From a virus (Duplodnaviria > Heunggongvirae > Uroviricota > Caudoviricetes), in the IMG/VR virus record IMGVR_UViG_2671180963_000004, positions 1 through 11,648 of that record: a stretch of 11,648 nucleotides of DNA; one strand, 5' to 3'. The notes under the pieces are model-generated. The model was not told the DNA's origin. It did not search any database and was given only the letters and a program-made list of their open reading frames with translations. A program made the translations under genes and the position numbers. Positions 2,861-11,648 of the stretch are shown one piece after another. The first letter of the stretch is position 1. Each line of letters begins with the position of its first letter.

Positions 2861-3059
2861 CCCACTTACTCACCAGTTCGCCATTGATATAAAGCTCCAT
2901 CGGGCGGGTGACCGGCTCCGGCGGCGGAGGTTCCGGGATATTCTTCACATGCAGCGCGCCGTCCACCTCACTGACCAGCGTGCGCTCGGTCAGCATCAGG
3001 CTGATGCTGATACAGGACAGGATTCGGGAAATAAACGGCTGGCTCGGCCAGGAGGTCAT
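2853..3059 (-). pseudogene. R: Tail completion protein R (P2 gpR-like), 3' fragment only (68 codons)
   Basis: 68-codon ORF ending 8 nt inside the S start, i.e. R position. Manual translation upstream of the ATG at 3057-3059 hits an in-frame stop at 3072-3074. Full-length gpR is roughly twice this size, so this is probably a 5'-truncated remnant. Confidence 0.55.
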
Positions 3060-3105
3060 CCGCTTTAAAAACTACTCACTGGACACTGACAACGGCTGAA
3101 CATCG

Positions 3106-3126
3106 CCGCCTGCGGGCGGCTTTTTT
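3106..3126 (+). terminator. Intrinsic terminator-like hairpin (GCCGCC-TGCG-GGCGGC followed by TTTTTT), plus-strand orientation
   Basis: Perfect 6-bp GC stem with 4-nt loop, followed directly by a T6 run. Oriented for rightward transcription, opposite to the flanking late genes. Consistent with a relic terminator from the far side of a deletion, possibly downstream of gene Q. Confidence 0.4.
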
Positions 3127-3268
3127 ACACCCCGTCATCACGCCCTCACACGCTCACCACCGCACAAAACACCCCGCAGACACACCAACGCCCCGGCGCA
3201 CAATCTAAACGCCATCAAGACGCGCTCAGACGCTGAAAAAATAAAATCAGCACCACCGCCAGCGCGCA

Positions 3269-3287
3269 GTGCTTTCCCCGCCTCGCC
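3269..3287 (-). other. cos: P2/P4-type cohesive end site (cos), 19 nt
   Basis: GTGCTTTCCCCGCCTCGCC at 3269-3287 is the exact reverse complement of the P2/P4 cohesive-end sequence GGCGAGGCGGGGAAAGCAC as I recall it. Orientation agrees with the reversed gene order. Confidence 0.8.
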
Positions 3288-3472
3288 CGCCCGCTTCATG
3301 GGGCATTTTTAATGCAGTTGCATGAACACTCCAAGAGCACACCATCGCTAGTGATAACTAACAATAAAAGCGACTTCTGACGCATGCAAATCCATGCACA
3401 TGATGGCATTTTTCATGATCTATGCGGTATGCTATCCGCTTCAATTTTTAACACTTGTTAAGGGAGCTAGAC

Positions 3473-4615
3473 ATGGACATTATTGATTTAAAATCTCAAC
3501 TAGAAAATGAAGATAATGCCAAGAAAAGAGCAGAGTTGCTTGCTCAGCTAGAGGTGATAAAGCAAAACGCTGAAGAGCAAATTCGTGCTGAGCAAAAGGA
3601 TGTGGATTTTGAGACCAAAGAATTTACCGTTGAGTTATTAGTTAATAAGTATCATAGCGGATTAGAGGATGATACTAACGAACTCTTTGTTCCTGATTAT
3701 CAAAGGGATTTTGTTTGGAGTGAAAAAAGACAATCAAGATTGATAGAGTCTTTGATTTTGGGTTTTCCTATACCATATATATTTACAGCAGATGTTCTCT
3801 CCGAAGATCCCGATTTAGATGGGCGAATTGAGATTGTTGATGGCTCACAGCGAGTTAGGACTATACACGCTTTTATCCAAAATGAATTAGTTTTACAAGA
3901 TCTGAAATCTTTAGACGCCCTTAATGGTTTCAAATTCCAAGATTTACCATTATCACGTCAACGTCGTTTCATGAGAATTCCTGTCCGCGTTATAGAATTG
4001 AGTTCTAAATGCAATGAAGAAACCCGTAGAGATCTTTTTGAACGTATTAACTCTGGCAGCGATATATTGAAAGATATGGAAGTCCGTAAAGGATCAGAAC
4101 TTGGTTCAACAAATTTATATACACAGGTTATTAAGCCATGCTCAACAATACCTAAATTTAAAGAATTAGCACCTTTATCTCAGACTAAAGAAAAACGAGA
4201 TGAACGGTTAGAATTTACATTAAGATTTTTTGCCTACTTAGATAAGTACAAGAACTTTGATCATTCCGTACGGGATTTTCTAAATGACTATATGTTAGAA
4301 AATCGAGATATAGACGAAACTAAACAAAACTCAATGAAACAAGAGTTTGCTAATGTTCTATCTTTTGTTGATAACTATTTCCCAGCAGGATTCAAGAAAA
4401 CTATTACTGCAAAATCTACACCTCGAGTTAGATTCGAATCTCTCGCTGTTGGCGCAGCACTTGCATTACGTGAAATCCCTGACCTTGTTCCCAAGAACTT
4501 GGATTGGCTAAGCTCAGAAGAATTCAAACGATTGACCACTTCAGACGGAGCTAATAGTCGCGTGAAGGTAATTGAACGAATTGAATATGTTCGGGATAAA
4601 TTATTAGAGGATTAA
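3473..4615 (+). CDS. DUF262 (ParB/GmrSD-N-terminal-like) domain protein, about 380 aa, no fused DUF1524/HNH nuclease domain
   Basis: Motifs DYQRDFVW (nt 3695-3718) and IVDGSQR (DGSQR at 3839-3853) are the hallmark QR..VW and DGQQR-type motifs of DUF262. Preferred start is ATG 3473, preceded by SD AGGGAG at 3461-3466; the ORF track uses TTG 3455. No (D/E)HxxP-type nuclease motif seen in the C-terminal half. AT-rich composition. Confidence 0.8.
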   Translation: MDIIDLKSQLENEDNAKKRAELLAQLEVIKQNAEEQIRAEQKDVDFETKEFTVELLVNKYHSGLEDDTNELFVPDYQRDFVWSEKRQSRLIESLILGFPIPYIFTADVLSEDPDLDGRIEIVDGSQRVRTIHAFIQNELVLQDLKSLDALNGFKFQDLPLSRQRRFMRIPVRVIELSSKCNEETRRDLFERINSGSDILKDMEVRKGSELGSTNLYTQVIKPCSTIPKFKELAPLSQTKEKRDERLEFTLRFFAYLDKYKNFDHSVRDFLNDYMLENRDIDETKQNSMKQEFANVLSFVDNYFPAGFKKTITAKSTPRVRFESLAVGAALALREIPDLVPKNLDWLSSEEFKRLTTSDGANSRVKVIERIEYVRDKLLED

Positions 4616-4616
4616 C

Positions 4617-5297
4617 ATGGATCGTTTTCGTGAGGATTTTGACGAAAGGTCAGGAGAGATCTTGGCCTATTTAGATCTTTTGAAATTTATTGAGTATGCC
4701 GGTGCAGAACTGATATCATCTGATGATAAAGAACATAAGTTCTCCATTACTGCTCAATCACGAAAAACTCTAAAGGGGGCAGTATATATTCTATTATATA
4801 ACCTCATTGAATCAACAATGAGAGAAGCTATCTGCCTTATTCATGAGACTATTTATGATAGAAACGTAGAATTTGACAAACTCAGGAAAAATATCAGGTC
4901 AGAAATATTAAAAAGATTAAAAAATGAATCTGTAAATATTGAAAGTTTAGTTAACCGTCTTACTAAAGGTATATCTTGCGGTATATCTTATGGCACTTTC
5001 AACAAAAAGAAAATATTCTCAGGAAATATTGATAGAGAGGAAATCAAAGAAAAATCGAAAATATATGGTTTTTCAACATATTCTGATTACACTCACACTA
5101 AACATGGTGAAAAATTAGCCACTGTCAAACAACATCGTAATGATTTATCTCATGGCAATGTATCATTTGCTGAGATTGGAAAAAATGTTTCATATCAGGA
5201 CTTAGAGAATATTTCATTAGAAGTAATCGCCTATCTTGATGCAATCGCGAATAATATAGAGCACTATATAAATAATAATGAATATTTAGAACAATAG
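4617..5297 (+). CDS. HEPN-like protein with Rx4H motif (putative RNase/nuclease effector), 226 aa
   Basis: ATG at 4617 is 1 nt after the upstream TAA (4613-4615), with SD-like GAGG at 4607-4610, indicating translational coupling. C-terminal region has KQHRNDLSHG, i.e. R174-x4-H179 (cgt 5136-5138, cat 5151-5153), the HEPN signature. Largely helical-looking, K/E-rich sequence. Pairing with a DUF262 protein resembles the MAE_28990/MAE_18760-type HEPN family naming as I recall it. Confidence 0.7.
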   Translation: MDRFREDFDERSGEILAYLDLLKFIEYAGAELISSDDKEHKFSITAQSRKTLKGAVYILLYNLIESTMREAICLIHETIYDRNVEFDKLRKNIRSEILKRLKNESVNIESLVNRLTKGISCGISYGTFNKKKIFSGNIDREEIKEKSKIYGFSTYSDYTHTKHGEKLATVKQHRNDLSHGNVSFAEIGKNVSYQDLENISLEVIAYLDAIANNIEHYINNNEYLEQ

Positions 5298-5303
5298 TAA
5301 TAA

Positions 5304-5320
5304 GGCCTGCAAAGCAGGCC
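5304..5320. terminator. Bidirectional terminator-like hairpin (GGCCTGC-AAA-GCAGGCC) between convergent genes
   Basis: 7-bp perfect stem with 3-nt loop in the 29-bp gap between the HEPN stop (5297) and the methyltransferase stop (5327). Flanked by T-rich sequence on plus (ATTTTAT) and A-rich on the other side. Confidence 0.5.
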
Positions 5321-5326
5321 ATTTTA

Positions 5327-6352
5327 TCATTCTAAATGGTTCTTGATTGATTGCCCAATTGCTTTTCCTAGTTCCACAGGAACAGCATTACCTATCATTT
5401 TCCCAATACTTCTTATAACAAACTTGTCTTTGTCTTCTACAAAGATATAATCCATCGGAAAAGTTTGCAATAAAGCAGCCTCTCTAAGAGAAATCGCTCT
5501 ATGCTGTTCTGGATGTCCAAAACGTCCATTTCCGAAACCATAACAAAGAGTTGTAATTGTTGGACTTGGCTTATCCCAAGACATGCGCCCATATACACTA
5601 GCATATCCTTTACCGCTAGATTTCATATGACAAGCAGCAATCAGCTCCTTCGGCCAGTCCTTCCATGTACCACCAGGAACAGAGTGTATAATTCTTTTTT
5701 TATTAATCGGATTTAATTTACTGGCTCTATGTAATATATCATTTGGATCTGTTTGGCCATCTTCTAACGGAGGAAGATTTCCTATTGCATCTCTAACTGT
5801 TTTCAAAATAACATCGTCACGTTTTACTAACTCAATCGCCCCCAATTTTGAAGCCAACAATACATGACGGGAACGGTTTTGTGGGATTCCATATTCGACA
5901 CAATCAACCTTCGACGCCCAAACATAATAGCCCAACTTTAACAATGAATTATAAAAATCATTATAAACTTTATGTTTAGTTACATCAGGAACGTTCTCCA
6001 TTGTTACGATTTCTGGAGATACTTCGCGAATTAAACGTTCGAACTCATAAAGAAGAGGCCATTTTTTATCATCAGCCTTATCTTTTCCTTGAGTATATTT
6101 TGAAAAAGGTTGGCAAGGTGCGCATCCTGCCAATACTTTTACAGACGCATCACCATAAAGCCTCAGCAGTTCCTCTTTTGTTACTTTAGCGATATCTTGC
6201 TCAATAAACTTAGATTTATTGTTTCTTTCATAGGGAAACCGACATTCCCCCTCAAGGTCTATGCCTGCAACGACATCAAGCCCCGCAAGCTGTAAACCAT
6301 GAGTTAATCCGCCAGCACCACAAAAAAGGTCTATCACCTTTACAGTCATCAT
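5327..6352 (-). CDS. DNA (cytosine-5)-methyltransferase, Dcm/M.HhaI-like, 341 aa
   Basis: Canonical C5-MTase motifs in order: motif I DLFCGAGG (AdoMet binding), motif IV GCAPCQPFS (catalytic PCQ, about 6110-6118), motif VI ENV (about 5990-5998), motif VIII QNRSRHVLLAS, and a C-terminal GNAVPV. SD-like GGAG upstream of the ATG at 6352. Confidence 0.9.
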   Translation of the reverse strand: MMTVKVIDLFCGAGGLTHGLQLAGLDVVAGIDLEGECRFPYERNNKSKFIEQDIAKVTKEELLRLYGDASVKVLAGCAPCQPFSKYTQGKDKADDKKWPLLYEFERLIREVSPEIVTMENVPDVTKHKVYNDFYNSLLKLGYYVWASKVDCVEYGIPQNRSRHVLLASKLGAIELVKRDDVILKTVRDAIGNLPPLEDGQTDPNDILHRASKLNPINKKRIIHSVPGGTWKDWPKELIAACHMKSSGKGYASVYGRMSWDKPSPTITTLCYGFGNGRFGHPEQHRAISLREAALLQTFPMDYIFVEDKDKFVIRSIGKMIGNAVPVELGKAIGQSIKNHLE

Positions 6353-6435
6353 TCACTCCAAATCTATACGATGCTCAGTATACATCCCTTTCTACAAAAT
6401 CTCGAGGCCTAACTTATAAACTCCTATTGATTGAG

Positions 6436-8535
6436 TTAACGCTTCACTGAGTTTGACTCTAATACTGTTGAGAATCCCGGCCACTCATCAGCGACCTGAT
6501 AAGTAAAATGTTTCCCGTCATAATTTACGGTCGCCCCACGCGCCAGCGCCTCAAGCTCCCATCGCTGCGGCCTGATACCGTTCTGAGCGAGGTCAACGCG
6601 GATACGGGTAATTTGCATTCGTTCCGACCGGGTCAGTCTGGCCGATGGTGCCATTTCATACTGTTTTAACGGGCTTCCGTTTCTCTGCTGACGATTTGGT
6701 GTTCTCAGCCCGTGTTTTAATGCGCCCCTGAGCGCCCTCACGACCTCCGGGTCATTCCATTCGATAACACCGTCATCAACCAGATTAAGCACTGCTGCGG
6801 CGTGCTCAGAAGGCGTGGGAGCCGGTAACGAAGTATCACCGCTGGTGAGCTTTCCACAGTTATTGACAGGACTCCGAGGCGCGGCGATGCCGCTTTTTAA
6901 AGTCAAAGGCTCAACGACCGGCACTTTCGGAACAATGCGCCAGTCCGTCGTTCTGGTGATATGAATATGACGCGCGCCGAGATGCGGCGCGTAAATGCCG
7001 ACCACTCTCTCGACTTCTTCCTCGTACTCGTTAACTTCATCCGACGGACTACGGGCGACCCTGACAGTCTGACAATCGCGCGGGACATTTGCCCCACCCT
7101 GCGCGCTGATATACAGCGCAAAATCACCACTGTCTGCGGCGGCGCGTGCAGCCTCGACGCGCTCGTCAAACTCATCAGCAATGCTGACGCCGCGAGGCAA
7201 TTTGCGTAGTTCACGGTAAGCCCCCATTGTCGGCAGGCCAACCGTTTTAAATTGCGGAATGCGCCACGTTGACGCCCATGCGGTAACAGCCGCGGCAGTA
7301 TCTTTCAGCGGTCTGCCGGTATCGTTATCGAGCTGCCCATCCAGTGCATAGCCGTCGATATTTTTTGAGATGTATTTCGCGATATACCCCGCAGCACCGC
7401 CCCGATTAAGATGTTTTGCCTGAAAACGGTTTCGCGCGGCTCCTCTTTCGTCGCCATCCTCTTTGAGCGCATAGCGACGCATGATTTCGATAATCTGGTT
7501 ACGCTGGCGTGGATTACAAAAAAACATCATATGCCAGTGCGGCGTTCCGTCGTGGTGTGGCTCGACGACTCGCAAACCGTAGACCTGTAAATCATTATCC
7601 TTGAATGCCGTGCGCATCAGGCTCCAGATACGGCAGAGATAACGCTGCGCATCCTTTGGATTAAATGCCTCATCGTTCCAGCCGTGATTTAGCTGGACGG
7701 TTTTACTTTCGCCTTTTCCAACCTGACGTGTCGGGTGATACTTTGACGGCGCGGTCAGCGTGATAAACATCCCCACATCACCCTCTGCGGCGGCGTAACG
7801 CTCAATACCGGCAATGGTGTTCATCAGCTCCATCCGGCGAATTTCAGGATTAGAAATACTGCCCATCACCTTACTGATAAGGTCGATGCGCTCGCCTGTT
7901 TCCCTGTTTTCGAGATCACACGATTTAAGAAATTCCAGATTTGCCTGGCGGCGTGCACGCACATCACGAATGGCATGTTTACTGGCATAAGGAGAACGGT
8001 CTTTATTGACCTCCCCGACAGCAATCAGTAACGCCTCATGCCAGCGCATACGCTGGCCTTTAAGCTGATGAGTCCACCACTCATCGTTAAACAGACGGGC
8101 AATGGCAGAATATGCCTGCCTCGTGGTCATCTGTCCTTTACGGTATTTTTTCCAGTAGAGAGGGGAAATATTGAAAGCACGTGCAGCGCCAGCAACATGA
8201 CCATAGAGGTGAGCCTGCGCCTCATCCGTAAACAGCGATTCTTTTTCGCCATGCGCATCCACCCATGCATCGCAGAGTTCCTCATACATCATGAAAAGCT
8301 GCGATGAGATACGGGCGGCAAACTTTTTCAGCTCCTTGTCATTCATTCCAGGCAGGCGCGCATAATGGTCACGCTCTGCCAGAAACAGCAACGACGCGTC
8401 GGTGTTCATTTCATGGCGCTGATTCACGCGCTCAATGCGCGGCCATAAGCGACGCTGAAAAGTGGATGTGAGGAAATAAAACCCGTGCAGCAGGTATTGG
8501 CGCATCACACTCTTCGCAAACCAGCGAAGAAACAC
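6436..8535 (-). CDS. A: Replication initiation protein A (P2 gpA-like rolling-circle HUH endonuclease)
   Basis: HUH motif in PHHDGTPHWHMMFF and tyrosine pair in GYIAKYISKN, typical of P2 A-family initiators. Called start 8533-8535 is a GTG with an in-frame stop 9 nt upstream (8545-8547); an in-frame ATG at 8503-8505 (MRQYLLHGFYF...) is an alternative start. Coding region overlaps the upstream zinc-finger ORF. Confidence 0.85.
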   Translation of the reverse strand: MFLRWFAKSVMRQYLLHGFYFLTSTFQRRLWPRIERVNQRHEMNTDASLLFLAERDHYARLPGMNDKELKKFAARISSQLFMMYEELCDAWVDAHGEKESLFTDEAQAHLYGHVAGAARAFNISPLYWKKYRKGQMTTRQAYSAIARLFNDEWWTHQLKGQRMRWHEALLIAVGEVNKDRSPYASKHAIRDVRARRQANLEFLKSCDLENRETGERIDLISKVMGSISNPEIRRMELMNTIAGIERYAAAEGDVGMFITLTAPSKYHPTRQVGKGESKTVQLNHGWNDEAFNPKDAQRYLCRIWSLMRTAFKDNDLQVYGLRVVEPHHDGTPHWHMMFFCNPRQRNQIIEIMRRYALKEDGDERGAARNRFQAKHLNRGGAAGYIAKYISKNIDGYALDGQLDNDTGRPLKDTAAAVTAWASTWRIPQFKTVGLPTMGAYRELRKLPRGVSIADEFDERVEAARAAADSGDFALYISAQGGANVPRDCQTVRVARSPSDEVNEYEEEVERVVGIYAPHLGARHIHITRTTDWRIVPKVPVVEPLTLKSGIAAPRSPVNNCGKLTSGDTSLPAPTPSEHAAAVLNLVDDGVIEWNDPEVVRALRGALKHGLRTPNRQQRNGSPLKQYEMAPSARLTRSERMQITRIRVDLAQNGIRPQRWELEALARGATVNYDGKHFTYQVADEWPGFSTVLESNSVKR

Positions 8536-8620
8536 CGCAATGTTTTACCCTTGCCGCGTTAATCTGGCGCTCCAGTAATTCAGCCTGTTGTTCCTGAATA
8601 AAATCTACGTTGTCCGGCAT
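8432..8620 (-). CDS. Small TraR/DksA-like zinc-finger protein (possibly degenerate), 62 aa
   Basis: Contains CEECDAPIPAAR, resembling the C-x2-C-G-x-P-I-P-x-x-RR core of TraR-family phage zinc fingers. The expected second CxxC pair is absent in all three frames; the tail is VLFPHIHFSASLMAAH. Overlaps the A start region by about 70-100 nt. Confidence 0.45.
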   Translation of the reverse strand: MPDNVDFIQEQQAELLERQINAARVKHCGVSSLVCEECDAPIPAARVLFPHIHFSASLMAAH

Positions 8621-8622
8621 TA

Positions 8623-8925
8623 TCAGCTCCTTTTATCGTTAAGTTTCCTGGATACATCAGCGCAATAACTGGCGAGTTCTGTCGTTAATTTTGTCAGTTC
8701 ATCCACTGAGGAAATTTGCTTGTGGAACACAGCGCGTTTAACAAGTAAATTGACCACATCAGACAGGAGGTTTAATTCATTCTGATAAATCGCGATAACA
8801 GATTCAGTTATGTCGCGTTTTTCTTTATCAAGACAAAGTTGAATAAGAGACAAATCACCATTTTCCATAACGGCGATTTTTAAGGCGTTATTCAGTAATA
8901 CAACTGAATGAGAACAGGACATCAA
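8623..8925 (-). CDS. Hypothetical small early protein (100 aa), in the B-to-A interval
   Basis: ORF in the same orientation as the early operon; start overlaps the upstream ORF stop by 4 nt (8922-8925). No recognisable motif. Confidence 0.5.
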
Positions 8926-9146
8926 AGCACCTCCCCGCGAGACAATCCGATATTGTGAAATTTTTCCGACTCCTGACTGAGCAGCTCGACTATCTCCACG
9001 CGGGATAACTCCGCCTTTGTGATATGGCGAATCATGGCGTCAAGATGAGAAGAAAAGCGCGTCGCAGCGTCGGCCTGTGCTTCGGTTCTGGCCTGTTGCA
9101 GCAGTAATGCGTATTTACCGCACTGATTTTCAGAAACTGTATGCAT
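8922..9146 (-). CDS. Hypothetical small early protein (74 aa), downstream of B
   Basis: ORF in early-operon orientation, coupled by overlap to the next ORF. No recognisable motif. Confidence 0.5.
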
Positions 9147-9209
9147 GACTTTCTCCAGGCAAAAAGAAGCCCCGCACGATTAAGTGCGTTAAAAACTCTG
9201 GTTAATTAT

Positions 9210-9710
9210 TTAATGCAAATATTGCTCTGGTTTTACCGACGTCAGAATTGTCGGTGCATACTCAAACAGACTGAATAGTTCACGTAATGCACGGAATAAA
9301 GCATCACGCCAGTAACATGACTCTTCATTAATTCGCCAGTATGGCTGATTGAATTCTTTTTCAGTCAATCCGGCATGCATAAATAAAGTACGACGCTGAC
9401 TGACTGTTAAAAAACTAATATATGCATACTCACTTGCGCCAACCTGACGGCGTTTTGAGAATGCCCCACGCAATTCATCAATTGCACAAACCAGCCGTTC
9501 ACGTTCGACGTCGTTCATTTCTTCAAAACGCATCGTTGCGTGACGTTGTTTTAACTGCGCATGAAAGCAAACTGTTAGCCGTTCGCGCTCCATCATCTGA
9601 TTATAATAATCACATGTATCCTGCCAGCGAGGGACGGCAAGATGCTTACCAATTATCCGGCGCATAGCTGCTGGCTGTTTTTCGACGAGATTGAGCGTCA
9701 TCACTGTCAT
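9210..9710 (-). CDS. B: Replication protein B (P2 gpB-like, 166 aa, helicase-loader-type early protein)
   Basis: 166-aa ORF of the length and position (downstream of cox and a small ORF, upstream of A) expected for P2 B. Confidence 0.75.
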   Translation of the reverse strand: MTVMTLNLVEKQPAAMRRIIGKHLAVPRWQDTCDYYNQMMERERLTVCFHAQLKQRHATMRFEEMNDVERERLVCAIDELRGAFSKRRQVGASEYAYISFLTVSQRRTLFMHAGLTEKEFNQPYWRINEESCYWRDALFRALRELFSLFEYAPTILTSVKPEQYLH

Positions 9711-9877
9711 TTCCAGACCCTCCGGCTTTTCAGAAAGGTCAGAGCCTTTTTTAACGGACTCTGTTTTTTGGTGCGGATAATGATTCCCTTACGCCCCTTA
9801 CCGTGGGTGATGGTGAAGTCAATCGCCCTGGGGCTTTCGTTACGCAGTAACTGAGCAATACAACGCGGTTCACTCAT
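9707..9877 (-). CDS. Small early ORF between cox and B (orf78-like position), about 56 aa
   Basis: ORF track starts at ATG 9902-9904, which would overlap the cox 3' end by 25 nt. In-frame ATG at 9875-9877 lies 2 nt after the cox stop and is preferred. Stop overlaps the B start (ATGA-type). Confidence 0.45.
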   Translation of the reverse strand: MSEPRCIAQLLRNESPRAIDFTITHGKGRKGIIIRTKKQSPLKKALTFLKSRRVWK

Positions 9878-9879
9878 AA

Positions 9880-10152
9880 TCACAACCCCATCCACAAAAG
9901 CCATGCATCACGCTGTTCAACTGGTCGGTTATAAAACGCCTCTCGTACAGCGCGATTAAACTCTGGAATGAAAACCCACTTCTCACCGACACGAGCGTTC
10001 GGCTTACTTGGATCACGAAGCTCAATAACTGGCAATTTATTCTCTTTTACCATCTTGACTACAGCCGTTTCTGGCTTACCAAGTAACTCTGCAAACTTAA
10101 CCGTATGTACCGCATCAATCGGGTACTGAATCACATAGTCATTGACTTCCAT
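9880..10152 (-). CDS. cox: Cox (P2-type excisionase/early-promoter regulator), 90 aa
   Basis: 90-aa ORF, first gene of the minus-strand early operon and divergent from C. Region KLPVIELRDPSKPNARVGEKWVFIPEFN...RDAWLLWMGL resembles P2 Cox as I recall it. Confidence 0.78.
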   Translation of the reverse strand: MEVNDYVIQYPIDAVHTVKFAELLGKPETAVVKMVKENKLPVIELRDPSKPNARVGEKWVFIPEFNRAVREAFYNRPVEQRDAWLLWMGL

Positions 10153-10197
10153 TGATTAGCCCTTTTTGCTTTCGTGTTACCCTTATTAGATCCAGCC

Positions 10198-10227
10198 CCT
10201 TCTAGGTCGCCCCTGTCCTTTCTAGGG
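10198..10227. repeat. Direct repeats CCTTCTAGG / CCTTTCTAGG (10198-10206 and 10218-10227): second candidate operator or Cox-box pair
   Basis: Near-identical 9-10-bp direct repeats spaced about 21 bp apart (two helical turns) in the cox-C intergenic region. Confidence 0.3.
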
Positions 10228-10248
10228 ACTGGCTAACACACTCAAAAG

Positions 10249-10292
10249 GTCACCAATACACAACCTTTTGACGGGAATATAAGTCACCAATA
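10249..10292. repeat. Direct repeats GTCACCAATA (10249-10258 and 10283-10292) flanking the candidate Pe -10: candidate repressor (C) or Cox operator half-sites
   Basis: Exact 10-bp direct repeat, 34 bp apart, one copy inside the Pe spacer and one just downstream of the predicted start site. Confidence 0.35.
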
Positions 10293-10304
10293 GGTTACTG
10301 TCAA
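10276..10304 (-). promoter_or_regulatory. Candidate early promoter Pe (minus strand): -35 TTGACA (10304-10299), 17-nt spacer, -10 TATATT (10281-10276)
   Basis: Near-consensus hexamers with 17-bp spacing, read on the minus strand. Lies on the C-proximal side of the cox-C intergenic region, consistent with the face-to-face Pe/Pc arrangement described for P2. Confidence 0.5.
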
Positions 10305-10598
10305 ATGCAGACATTCGAAAAACTGAAAGCGATTAGGAAAGCAGAAGGCTTAACACAGGCGAAATTCAGCGAAATTAGCGGGATAGCTCTAGGAACAGTC
10401 AAAAATTACGAAAGTGGGCATAAAGACCCTGGTCTCAGCATCGTTATGCGAGTCACAAATACGCCTTTATTTAAAAAATATACGCTCTGGTTAATGACTG
10501 GTGATACGTCACCACAAGCTGGTCAGATCGCGCCGGCTCTCGCACACATTGGGCAAAAACCAACAGAATCAGACCGCTCCGAAAAACAGACTGGTTAA
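10305..10598 (+). CDS. C: Immunity repressor C (P2 C-like, 97 aa, HTH)
   Basis: N-terminal helix-turn-helix region LTQAKFSEISGIALGTVKNYESG. C-terminal KYTLWLMTGDTSPQAGQIAPALAHIGQ closely resembles P2 C as I recall it. Divergent from cox and upstream of int. Confidence 0.82.
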   Translation: MQTFEKLKAIRKAEGLTQAKFSEISGIALGTVKNYESGHKDPGLSIVMRVTNTPLFKKYTLWLMTGDTSPQAGQIAPALAHIGQKPTESDRSEKQTG

Positions 10599-10667
10599 CA
10601 CTCTATAAACATTACATTTTCACCATTTGTTACCAAGATGGTGAATACAGCGTCAGAGGGCTTTCTT

Positions 10668-11648
10668 ATGTCAATTAAGAAGCTCGATGATGGACGCTAT
10701 GAAGTGGACATTAGACCTCGCGGTCGCGACGGAAAACGCATCCGCAGGAAATTTGAAAGAAAAGCTGAGGCTGTAGCATTTGAGCGATACACAATCGCCT
10801 ACGCCAGCCAGAAAGAATGGGCAGGTCAGCGAGCAGATCGCAGAACTTTGAGTGAGTTGCTGGACATCTGGTGGAAATATCACGGGCAAAACCACGAGCA
10901 TGGAACAAAAGAGTTTAATCATCTGCTCAAAACCATCAGCGGCATAGGTGATATACCAGTGAGCCGGATGAGCAAAAGAGCTTTGATGGATTATCGTTCC
11001 ATGCGACTACGAAATGGTATCAGTGCCGCAACGATAAACCGTGACATGTACCGATTATCCGGCATGTTCACAAAATTAATTCAATTGGATGAATTTTCCG
11101 GGCAACACCCAATTCACGGACTGCCGCCACTGGCGGAGGCCAACCCTGAAATGACGTTCCTGGAAAAAGCAGAAATCGAAAAACTGTTAAATGTTTTGGA
11201 TGGTGATGACTTACTTGTCGCACTTTTATGTCTGAGCACTGGAGGAAGATGGACGGAAGTTGCCACGCTAAAACCAGCACAGATTACAAATTGCAGGGTT
11301 ACCTTCCTGAAAACCAAAAACGGTAAAAAGCGAACCGTGCCGATTTCTGAGGAACTGGAGAAAAAAGTTAAAGAGGAGGCCAGCGCTAAATTATTCAAAG
11401 TTGATTATGAGAAGTTTTGCGGGATTTTACGCAGAGTGAAGCCAGATATACCACCCAATCAGGCAACCCACATCCTGCGGCATACATTCGCAAGCCATTT
11501 CATGATGAATGGGGGCAATATAATCGCACTGCAACAGATTCTGGGACATGCGAGCATTCAGCAGACGATGGCCTATGCGCACCTTGCGCCTGACTACCTG
11601 CAAAATGCCGTCGCGCTGAATCCTCTAAAAGGCGGAGTGACGTTATAA
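10668..11648 (+). CDS. int: Tyrosine integrase (P2 Int-like), about 326 aa
   Basis: MSIKKLDDGRYEVDIRP... matches the P2 Int N-terminus as I recall it. C-terminal catalytic region HILRHTFASHFMMNGGNIIALQQILGHASIQQTMAYAHL carries the H-x-x-R box and Tyr of tyrosine recombinases. Preferred start is ATG 10668 with SD AGAGGG at 10655-10660; the ORF track starts at 10638. Stop is at 11646-11648, the window edge. Confidence 0.9.
   Translation: MSIKKLDDGRYEVDIRPRGRDGKRIRRKFERKAEAVAFERYTIAYASQKEWAGQRADRRTLSELLDIWWKYHGQNHEHGTKEFNHLLKTISGIGDIPVSRMSKRALMDYRSMRLRNGISAATINRDMYRLSGMFTKLIQLDEFSGQHPIHGLPPLAEANPEMTFLEKAEIEKLLNVLDGDDLLVALLCLSTGGRWTEVATLKPAQITNCRVTFLKTKNGKKRTVPISEELEKKVKEEASAKLFKVDYEKFCGILRRVKPDIPPNQATHILRHTFASHFMMNGGNIIALQQILGHASIQQTMAYAHLAPDYLQNAVALNPLKGGVTL

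Follow-up and report, generated by a model that had tools for sequence, protein, structure and literature searches.

The interval between gpQ/cos and gpA is an established variable hotspot of P2-like phages (Rousset 2022, PMC9122126; Vassallo 2022, PMC9519451), and the same hotspot is credited to Odegrip 2006 as that study is cited in later work. The cargo of this hotspot averages 3.2 kb. This work concerns a 3.1-kb cargo at this position in an 11,648-nucleotide stretch of the IMG/VR record IMGVR_UViG_2671180963_000004, and the whole of that stretch is referred to as the window. The cargo consists of a DUF262 gene (ORF1, for open reading frame 1), a HEPN gene (ORF2), and a gene for a C5 DNA cytosine methyltransferase (ORF3), which are together referred to as the triad. 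The three genes are one mobile, selected module that has moved as a whole among P2-like, lambdoid, and Moraxella phages. We give an even chance to the reading that the triad is a methylation-coupled DUF262 sensor that controls a HEPN ribonuclease (RNase), carried as lysogenic-conversion cargo of a P2-like prophage.

Several systems related to the triad have been described. DUF262 is a modification sensor and nucleoside triphosphatase (NTPase) in SspE, GmrSD, and BrxU (PMC12065111, PMC10952713). Menshen (NsnABC) requires the NsnB ABC-ATPase and the NsnC effector (PMC12065111). PD-T4-2 from ECOR65 is a validated defence that consists of DUF262 and HEPN and acts against T4 and T-even phages (PMC9519451; PMC10952713). 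Operons of MAE_28990-family HEPN genes were noted by Anantharaman et al. 2013 (PMC3710099), where they take up one table line and a general prediction that an RNase acts as a second defence line attached to restriction-modification (R-M) systems; experiments are not part of that work, and a link to phage hotspots is not drawn.

At the P2 hotspot, exactly these three proteins are listed by Rousset et al. 2022 (PMC9122126). The listed proteins are the RefSeq proteins of an intact prophage in E. coli CFSAN064036, and the DNA of that prophage is 100% identical to the window in this part. The triad arrangement was found at least 6-7 times in about 2000 of the 18,150 rows of their Table S5A. In the same study, methylase-bearing cargos of the P2 hotspot are marked 'RM-like system' in Table S5B, a DUF262+HEPN_RiboL-PSP cargo is marked 'Likely a RNAse' in the curated table, and a Vibrio locus with DUF262, DUF262/DndB, and HEPN_MAE_28990 is labelled 'Type-IV restriction'. 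No sign of cloning or testing of the triad was found. The feature is already known, since the exact trio is listed by Rousset et al. 2022 and the operon type was noted by Anantharaman et al. 2013. Both the hotspot and its cargo are catalogued, and only the proposed mechanism goes beyond that.

The interval at 3288-6435 contains exactly three intact genes. The genes and the signals around them are listed below.

3473-4615, plus strand: ORF1, 380 amino acids, with a ParB/DUF262 NTPase domain and a helical ParBDB-type DNA-binding domain, predicted sensor (Pfam DUF262/GmrSD_N, 4.7e-26)
4617-5297, plus strand: ORF2, 226 amino acids, MAE_28990-family HEPN protein, predicted RNase effector (Pfam PF18737, 2.8e-29, full length)
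5304-5320, no single strand: predicted bidirectional intrinsic terminator, a perfect GC-rich hairpin GGCCTGCAAAGCAGGCC with T-tracts on both sides, terminator-like on both strands (-13.9 kcal/mol, z = -3.85 against shuffled sequences)
5327-6352, minus strand: ORF3, 341 amino acids, C5 DNA cytosine methyltransferase in the orf91 slot downstream of A (Pfam DNA_methylase, 4.4e-58; TIGR00675 dcm)
6377-6405, minus strand: weak candidate promoter-like site TCGAGA-17-TATACT between A and ORF3 (consensus scan, 9 of 12 positions)

ORF1 exhibits the DUF262 motifs QRxxxW, DGxQR, and FxxxN, which are invariant in 27 homologues. The best PADLOC model for ORF1 is NsnA (2e-54, residues 25-374, full length), and the PD-T4-2_A model (5e-35) scores far below it. 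A weak PADLOC match to one 'REase_II' model (3e-5) is limited to the DUF262 part. No Pfam match to DUF1524 or another nuclease domain was found in ORF1, and its C-terminal half is all-helical in the predicted model. The top matches of the structure search are BrxU and SspE, with the type IV enzyme BrxU as the best. Neither ORF1 nor the HEPN profile matched any PDB entry in sequence searches.

The ATG of ORF2 lies 1 nt past the stop codon of ORF1, with a GAGG ribosome-binding site within the 3' end of ORF1, and both genes form a translationally coupled operon. The motif R-N-x-L-x-H (Rx4H; R174 and H179) of ORF2 is intact and invariant among its homologues. ORF2 also exhibits a secondary Pfam match to PF18735 (HEPN_RiboL-PSP, 8.5e-9). 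Its predicted model (mean predicted local distance difference test score, pLDDT, of 91) has the HEPN fold, and its structural neighbours are HEPN toxins, including those of HEPN-MNT toxin-antitoxin pairs. The triad is absent from PADLOC v2, where no model matches ORF2 even at E<=10.

ORF3 has all of the catalytic motifs FCGAGG, PCQ, ENV, QNRSR, and GNAVP, which are conserved in 37 triads. The RefSeq start of ORF3 is the second methionine (6349). Its nearest solved relatives are M.HaeIII, DNMT1, and M.HhaI. Residues 221-300 are the most conserved part across the 37 triads and are also a generic DNMT1-like segment, so their conservation gives no ground for a common specificity. The hairpin occupies the 29 nt that separate the convergent genes ORF2 and ORF3, as a predicted terminator common to both, and no terminator was found between A and ORF3. 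No recognisable DNase fold that would represent a cognate DNA endonuclease was found in the triad.

Menshen was considered since NsnA is the top PADLOC match of ORF1, which also has the ParB-DUF262 and ParBDB domains of NsnA. However, the gene after ORF1 encodes the 226-residue HEPN protein, the island contains no ATPase, and the inPIN nuclease NsnC is absent, with HEPN and methylase genes in place of NsnB and NsnC. Menshen was therefore rejected. PD-T4-2 shares the two-gene core of DUF262 and HEPN with the triad, and its HEPN family is PF18735, the secondary match of ORF2. However, both PD-T4-2 genes span 1.54 kb compared to 1.83 kb here, and ORF2 has no PD-T4-2_B match, so identity with PD-T4-2 was also rejected. 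GmrSD, BrxU, and SspE share with ORF1 the DUF262 NTPase sensor fold, the DGxQR motif for nucleoside triphosphate (NTP) binding, and the helical middle domain, but they carry a C-terminal DUF1524 His-Me finger nuclease where the triad has a separate HEPN effector. GmrSD was rejected because DUF1524 is absent. The closest functional analogy is with SspE-like logic, where DUF262 reads a self modification.

PrrC-EcoprrI resembles the triad in that a HEPN RNase (an anticodon nuclease in a type I R-M locus) is tied genetically to a DNA-modification system and serves as a layer of defence. It differs in that PrrC carries an ABC ATPase of its own and is kept silent by a complete type I R-M enzyme, whereas no DNA endonuclease is found here. 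The likeness to type II R-M systems is the DNA methyltransferase with its complete catalytic motifs. The triad belongs to the MAE_28990 HEPN/ParB/methylase operons of Anantharaman et al. 2013 (PMC3710099), as it has a HEPN protein of the same Pfam family with the Rx4-6H motif and adjacent genes for a ParB-fold (DUF262) protein and a methylase.

The window is a P2-like (Peduovirus) prophage according to Pfam and PHROG scans and megablast. The genes on the minus strand are in the order of int (10638-11648), C, cox, a B-like gene, small early genes, A, the island, cos, tail and late-gene fragments, and ogr as the last. The landmarks of the island are listed below.

3269-3287, minus strand: P2 cos cohesive-end sequence GGCGAGGCGGGGAAAGCAC (19-mer), one exact match that aligns to cosR of NC_001895, left boundary landmark
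3288-3400, no strand: cos-proximal leader, still backbone-like, with 84-86% identity to other P2-like phages that carry different cargo and a match to P2 itself only to 3316
6436-8535, minus strand: gene A, replication endonuclease (Pfam Phage_GPA, 2.5e-124), with its N-terminus truncated in the window, right boundary landmark

The interval spans exactly from cos to A because it starts right after cos (which ends at 3287) and stops one base ahead of the stop codon of A (6436). The foreign DNA starts near 3317-3400, since the match to P2 ends at 3316 and the leader matches P2-like phages with other cargo. In the intact CFSAN064036 prophage, the interval lies between the portal gene and A. The P2 reference (NC_001895) has three genes from A to cosR, namely orf91, tin, and old. 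The homology of the window to P2 stops at 3316 and resumes at 6456, with 3.14 kb here in place of 3.23 kb. P2 orf91 is co-directional with A, and tin and old are transcribed towards A from a start site about 170 bp from the genome end, near cos. The triad exhibits the same layout, where the two-gene operon reads away from cos in the old-tin position and one gene is co-directional with A in the orf91 slot.

The island has a GC content of 0.362 compared to 0.513 for the rest of the window. The best unconstrained two-breakpoint segmentation of the whole window falls at 3306-6475 (GC 0.360 inside against 0.514 outside; log-likelihood gain of 112), and the window has no second 3.1-kb stretch that is equally AT-rich. 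The GC content at third codon positions (GC3) is 0.265, 0.242, and 0.278 for the three island genes compared to 0.55-0.66 for A and the tail genes. In nearly every host, the cassette is richer in AT than the sequence around it. A repeat search did not find flanking direct or inverted repeats that point to insertion of the transposon or integron type, and no RNA families were found in the window with Rfam.

The flanks were matched in 2160 of 5426 complete E. coli genomes, and only 9 of those carry this cassette. Other occupants of the slot are DUF3850/ASCH genes, reverse transcriptases, the BbrUII/HgiDII R-M system, and a ParB_N protein with a methylase. The island lies between cos/portal and A with conserved flanks and variable content, as is the case for P2-like hotspot #1, from which it shows no structural difference, and it is horizontally acquired cargo in the old/tin slot of a P2-like prophage.

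An earlier note on this DNA, made from the sequence alone, had described an AT-rich island of three low-GC genes that replaces old/tin between cos and A, at a recognised variable hotspot for defence cargo, and had read it as a moron cassette gained by horizontal acquisition. The boundaries, composition, and P2 alignment given above agree with that description, the hotspot is the one reported by Rousset 2022 and Vassallo 2022, and the acquisition is borne out by the foreign composition, the rare occurrence, and the alleles in other phages that are described below. The GC, GC3, and alignment results pass the check that it had proposed: the flanks are conserved, the inserts vary, and the genes are not core genes of the lineage. 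The identities of the three genes and the deletion state of the prophage go beyond that note.

The linkage of the three genes was studied with an alignment of HEPN homologues that was scanned against one genome per GTDB species, where 415 relatives were obtained and 80 loci were examined. The DUF262 gene is directly upstream of the HEPN gene in all 80 loci, which makes the pair an obligate one. A full-length ORF3 orthologue (50-59% identity) is adjacent in 36 of the 80 loci, which belong to Gammaproteobacteria, Cyanobacteria, Bacteroidales, and Acidobacteriota. The methylase gene is mostly convergent, but it is co-directional downstream in one Bacteroidales locus and upstream in two Acidobacteriota loci, and the adjacency is kept despite the changed order or orientation (L037, L061, and L079). 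The reverse look-up shows that methylase homologues at 99, 72, 62, 62, and 60% identity adjoin a MAE_28990 HEPN gene in five of five cases. The DUF262 gene is beside HEPN in four of the five; in P. aeruginosa the next gene has no Pfam match and the contig ends there. The pairwise protein distances are correlated between DUF262 and methylase (r = 0.96), DUF262 and HEPN (0.88), and HEPN and methylase (0.88), with Mantel p <= 5e-4. The methylase is accordingly a dedicated partner of the pair. All three genes are under purifying selection, where the comparison with the 89%-identical allele of E. coli GN04592 gives a dS (synonymous divergence) of about 0.5 and a dN/dS (nonsynonymous to synonymous ratio) of 0.06-0.08 in each gene.

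The gpA and portal proteins flanking the GN04592 allele are 98-99% identical (gpA 98%) despite the dS of about 0.5 for the triad. A Tatumella P2-like prophage carries a triad allele with 82-87% protein identity, and its gpA is only 30% identical. Salmonella P2-like prophages also have the triad between portal and A, and two more diverged triad alleles are found in E. coli P2 hotspots. Klebsiella pneumoniae lambdoid prophages (L087-L089) have a triad allele of about 86% identity in the nin region, between the replication genes and NinG/RusA/antiterminator, where both the phage family and the moron site are different. In Moraxella phages the triad adjoins a CI-like repressor gene. The triad is present in four bacterial phyla, including non-phage contexts, and hundreds of assemblies of Escherichia/Shigella, Salmonella, and Klebsiella carry it. 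The cassette is therefore not a lineage-specific core, since diverged alleles occur in near-identical backbones and related alleles occur in the distant phages of Tatumella and Klebsiella.

Two triads carry further genes. In a Salmonella prophage, an insertion sequence with a rve-family transposase (L092:7933-8973) lies between the HEPN and methylase genes, both of which are undisturbed. In P. aeruginosa, a vsr (very-short-patch repair) gene (L103:5028-5438) lies between the methylase and HEPN genes, and the insertion of this mismatch-repair gene is indirect evidence that the methylase family makes genomic 5-methylcytosine (5mC).

The window was aligned with the intact prophage at the cpxP locus of CFSAN064036, which gave five collinear pieces. 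The junctions of the pieces mark four internal deletions (1161/1162, 1254/1255, 3011/3012, and 8487-8489), and the portal, terminase, capsid, lysis, tail-fibre, sheath, tube, and tape-measure genes have been deleted. Gene A loses roughly 81 codons from its start at the 8487-8489 junction, which fuses A out of frame to a TraR-like gene. The stretch at 3011-11648 is otherwise 100% identical to the CFSAN064036 prophage, including the intact triad. The window prophage is a deletion remnant of an otherwise near-identical intact prophage. Three other P2 prophages (L094, L095, and L096) have decayed independently through deletions or insertion sequences and kept the same triad, and a further decayed P2 prophage (L106) has different cargo in the same slot (ParB_N, hypothetical protein, and C5 methylase). 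The cargo kept by these four decayed prophages suggests that hotspot cargo outlives the phage.

The cargo of the further decayed prophage (L106:9528-12653) is system #2 of Rousset et al., which is among the commonest P2 cargos of the same hotspot and is marked 'RM-like'. It has a parallel architecture and a sequence that is unrelated to the triad. It was rejected as the same system, as its methylase has 26% identity to ORF3 and no similarity was seen for the other two proteins.

Other features of the window and of related prophages were also observed. A 13-mer GGCATTTTT(A/C)ATG occurs twice in the leader upstream of ORF1 (3302-3314 and 3405-3417, 103 bp apart, with the second copy just outside 3288-3400), and the pair could be a protein-binding site or chance. 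A predicted strong intrinsic terminator (GCCGCCTGCGGGCGGC followed by T6) is located at 3103-3125, directly behind the portal gene Q, of which the 3' end is retained, between Q' and cos. The DUF5405 gene of the early operon (8623-8925) is also AT-rich (GC 0.376), and other P2-like prophages have a PAPS-reductase gene or a Dam-like methylase gene just upstream of A (L002:12364-13371 and L090:11970-12827), which suggests that the early operon contains another variable site.

In the proposed mechanism, the methylase would mark the resident DNA, which is the chromosome and the prophage, with 5mC at one motif. ORF1 would read the modification state of DNA through its DUF262/ParBDB module, coupled to NTP binding or hydrolysis, as DUF262 does in SspE, BrxU, and GmrSD. 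Incoming DNA that is non-self would lead ORF1 to release or activate the HEPN partner, which would cleave RNA and stop phage growth, probably by growth arrest or abortive infection. The position of the methylase gene downstream of A would allow read-through from the early operon during lytic growth, so that the replicating phage DNA would also be marked. What is established is where the island lies, its foreign composition, the domains and intact catalytic motifs of the three genes, and that the genes are inherited together under purifying selection; that the triad acts against phages, in which direction it senses methylation, and that its target is RNA are inferred.

The loci without a linked methylase (L011, L014, and L025-L081 among them) complicate this mechanism. 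The cyanobacterial pairs adjoin housekeeping genes, namely acnB (Nostocales), clpB (Microcoleus), secA, and cobN. The DUF262 gene is truncated in several Microcoleus copies.

A number of observations weigh against a methylation-coupled sensor. In the DUF262 tree, the pairs that have no linked methylase fall into one clade, which consists of cyanobacteria or metagenome bins that cluster with them, and most of these pairs keep intact motifs, as do those of L014 and L015. Within the methylase-bearing clade, Aphanizomenon has lost the methylase and Dolichospermum keeps an 83-residue methylase remnant (L015). In phage P24B2 the methylase is frameshifted and the pair is intact, where a sequencing error is possible. 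Methylase loss is thus tolerated, which disfavours a plain logic of attack on unmethylated DNA unless the host supplies a methylase of equal specificity. PD-T4-2, which has no methylase, is functional in K-12 all the same (PMC9519451). The correlation of protein distances is partly expected from shared history alone. The PDB relatives, NCBIfam, and PADLOC (DrmMII-like) yield only the generic family for ORF3 and no target motif. The promoter scan gave as many sites in total as shuffled sequences, and none upstream of ORF1 was convincing. The literature on MAE_28990, DUF262+HEPN, and DUF262+HEPN+cytosine methyltransferase yielded no experimental work on the triad.

Three readings of the loci without methylase are considered. 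Substitution by a host methylase of the same specificity is plausible in cyanobacteria, which have conserved orphan m5C methylases. The mark may also license the sensor rather than protect from it, by analogy with phosphorothioate for SspE, or the pair may sense something else.

The reading of the triad as a methylation-coupled sensor may be extended, more tentatively and at a level that we regard as possible but doubtful, to a distinct and widespread R-M-like immunity whose 'restriction' arm has no DNA endonuclease. DUF262 would read a dedicated 5mC mark and switch on the HEPN RNase, so that self and non-self are told apart on DNA and the killing is done on RNA. The cyanobacterial clade without methylase would be a derived form that reads the mark of a conserved host methylase. 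The system would be exchangeable cargo of several temperate phage families that decaying prophages keep.

The main rival is that the DUF262-HEPN pair is a modification-dependent, type-IV-like sensor of hypermodified phage DNA (T-even hydroxymethylcytosine and glucosyl-hydroxymethylcytosine), like GmrSD, BrxU, and perhaps PD-T4-2, with the methylase as a separate passenger that protects phage DNA from host restriction enzymes. We consider this unlikely, although less so than the explanations that follow it. BrxU as the best structural match of ORF1, the intact pairs without methylase, the 'Type-IV restriction' label that Rousset et al. put on the Vibrio DUF262/HEPN_MAE_28990 locus, and the ability of PD-T4-2 to block T4 without a methylase while harmless in K-12 (PMC9519451) are all consistent with it. 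However, an independent passenger would not keep its place beside the pair while the gene order changes in four phyla, co-diverge at r = 0.96, or adjoin the pair in all five reverse look-ups. ORF1 also does not have the DUF1524 nuclease of type IV enzymes, and ORF2 does not have a PD-T4-2_B match.

The triad could also be chiefly an addiction or stabilisation module, where a putative HEPN toxin would be restrained by ORF1, methylation, or both, loss of the element kills the cells, and the anti-phage activity is secondary or absent. We regard this as improbable. The triad persists undamaged and at 100% identity in several P2 remnants that decayed independently, the window among them, but useful defence genes are equally expected to persist in remnants. 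The structural neighbours of ORF2 among HEPN-MNT toxin-antitoxin pairs are toxins, and classical R-M systems behave as addiction modules, which count in its favour. However, pairs that survive the loss of the methylase show the reverse of what post-segregational killing through lost modification would give. The last explanation, that the stretch is ordinary AT-rich backbone conserved in the phage lineage, is refuted, since moderately AT-rich early P2 genes do exist (8623-8925 is one) but the cassette is in only 9 of the 2160 flank-bearing E. coli genomes, P2 itself has orf91-tin-old there, lambdoid phages, Moraxella phages, and non-phage contexts also have the cassette, and its GC3 is below half that of the backbone.

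As a genomic feature, the island is a textbook P2-like defence hotspot and adds nothing new to that picture. The triad is widely distributed, with hundreds of assemblies of the three enterobacterial groups named above and 415 relatives among the GTDB species genomes. If the reading of the triad as a methylation-coupled sensor is true, the triad would link self-marking by DNA methylation to an RNase effector through a DUF262 sensor. This would bear on how DUF262 sensors without the DUF1524 nuclease (Menshen, Dazbog, and PD-T4-2) recognise their targets. The triad that is kept in decayed prophages illustrates the domestication by the host of defence genes borne by phages.

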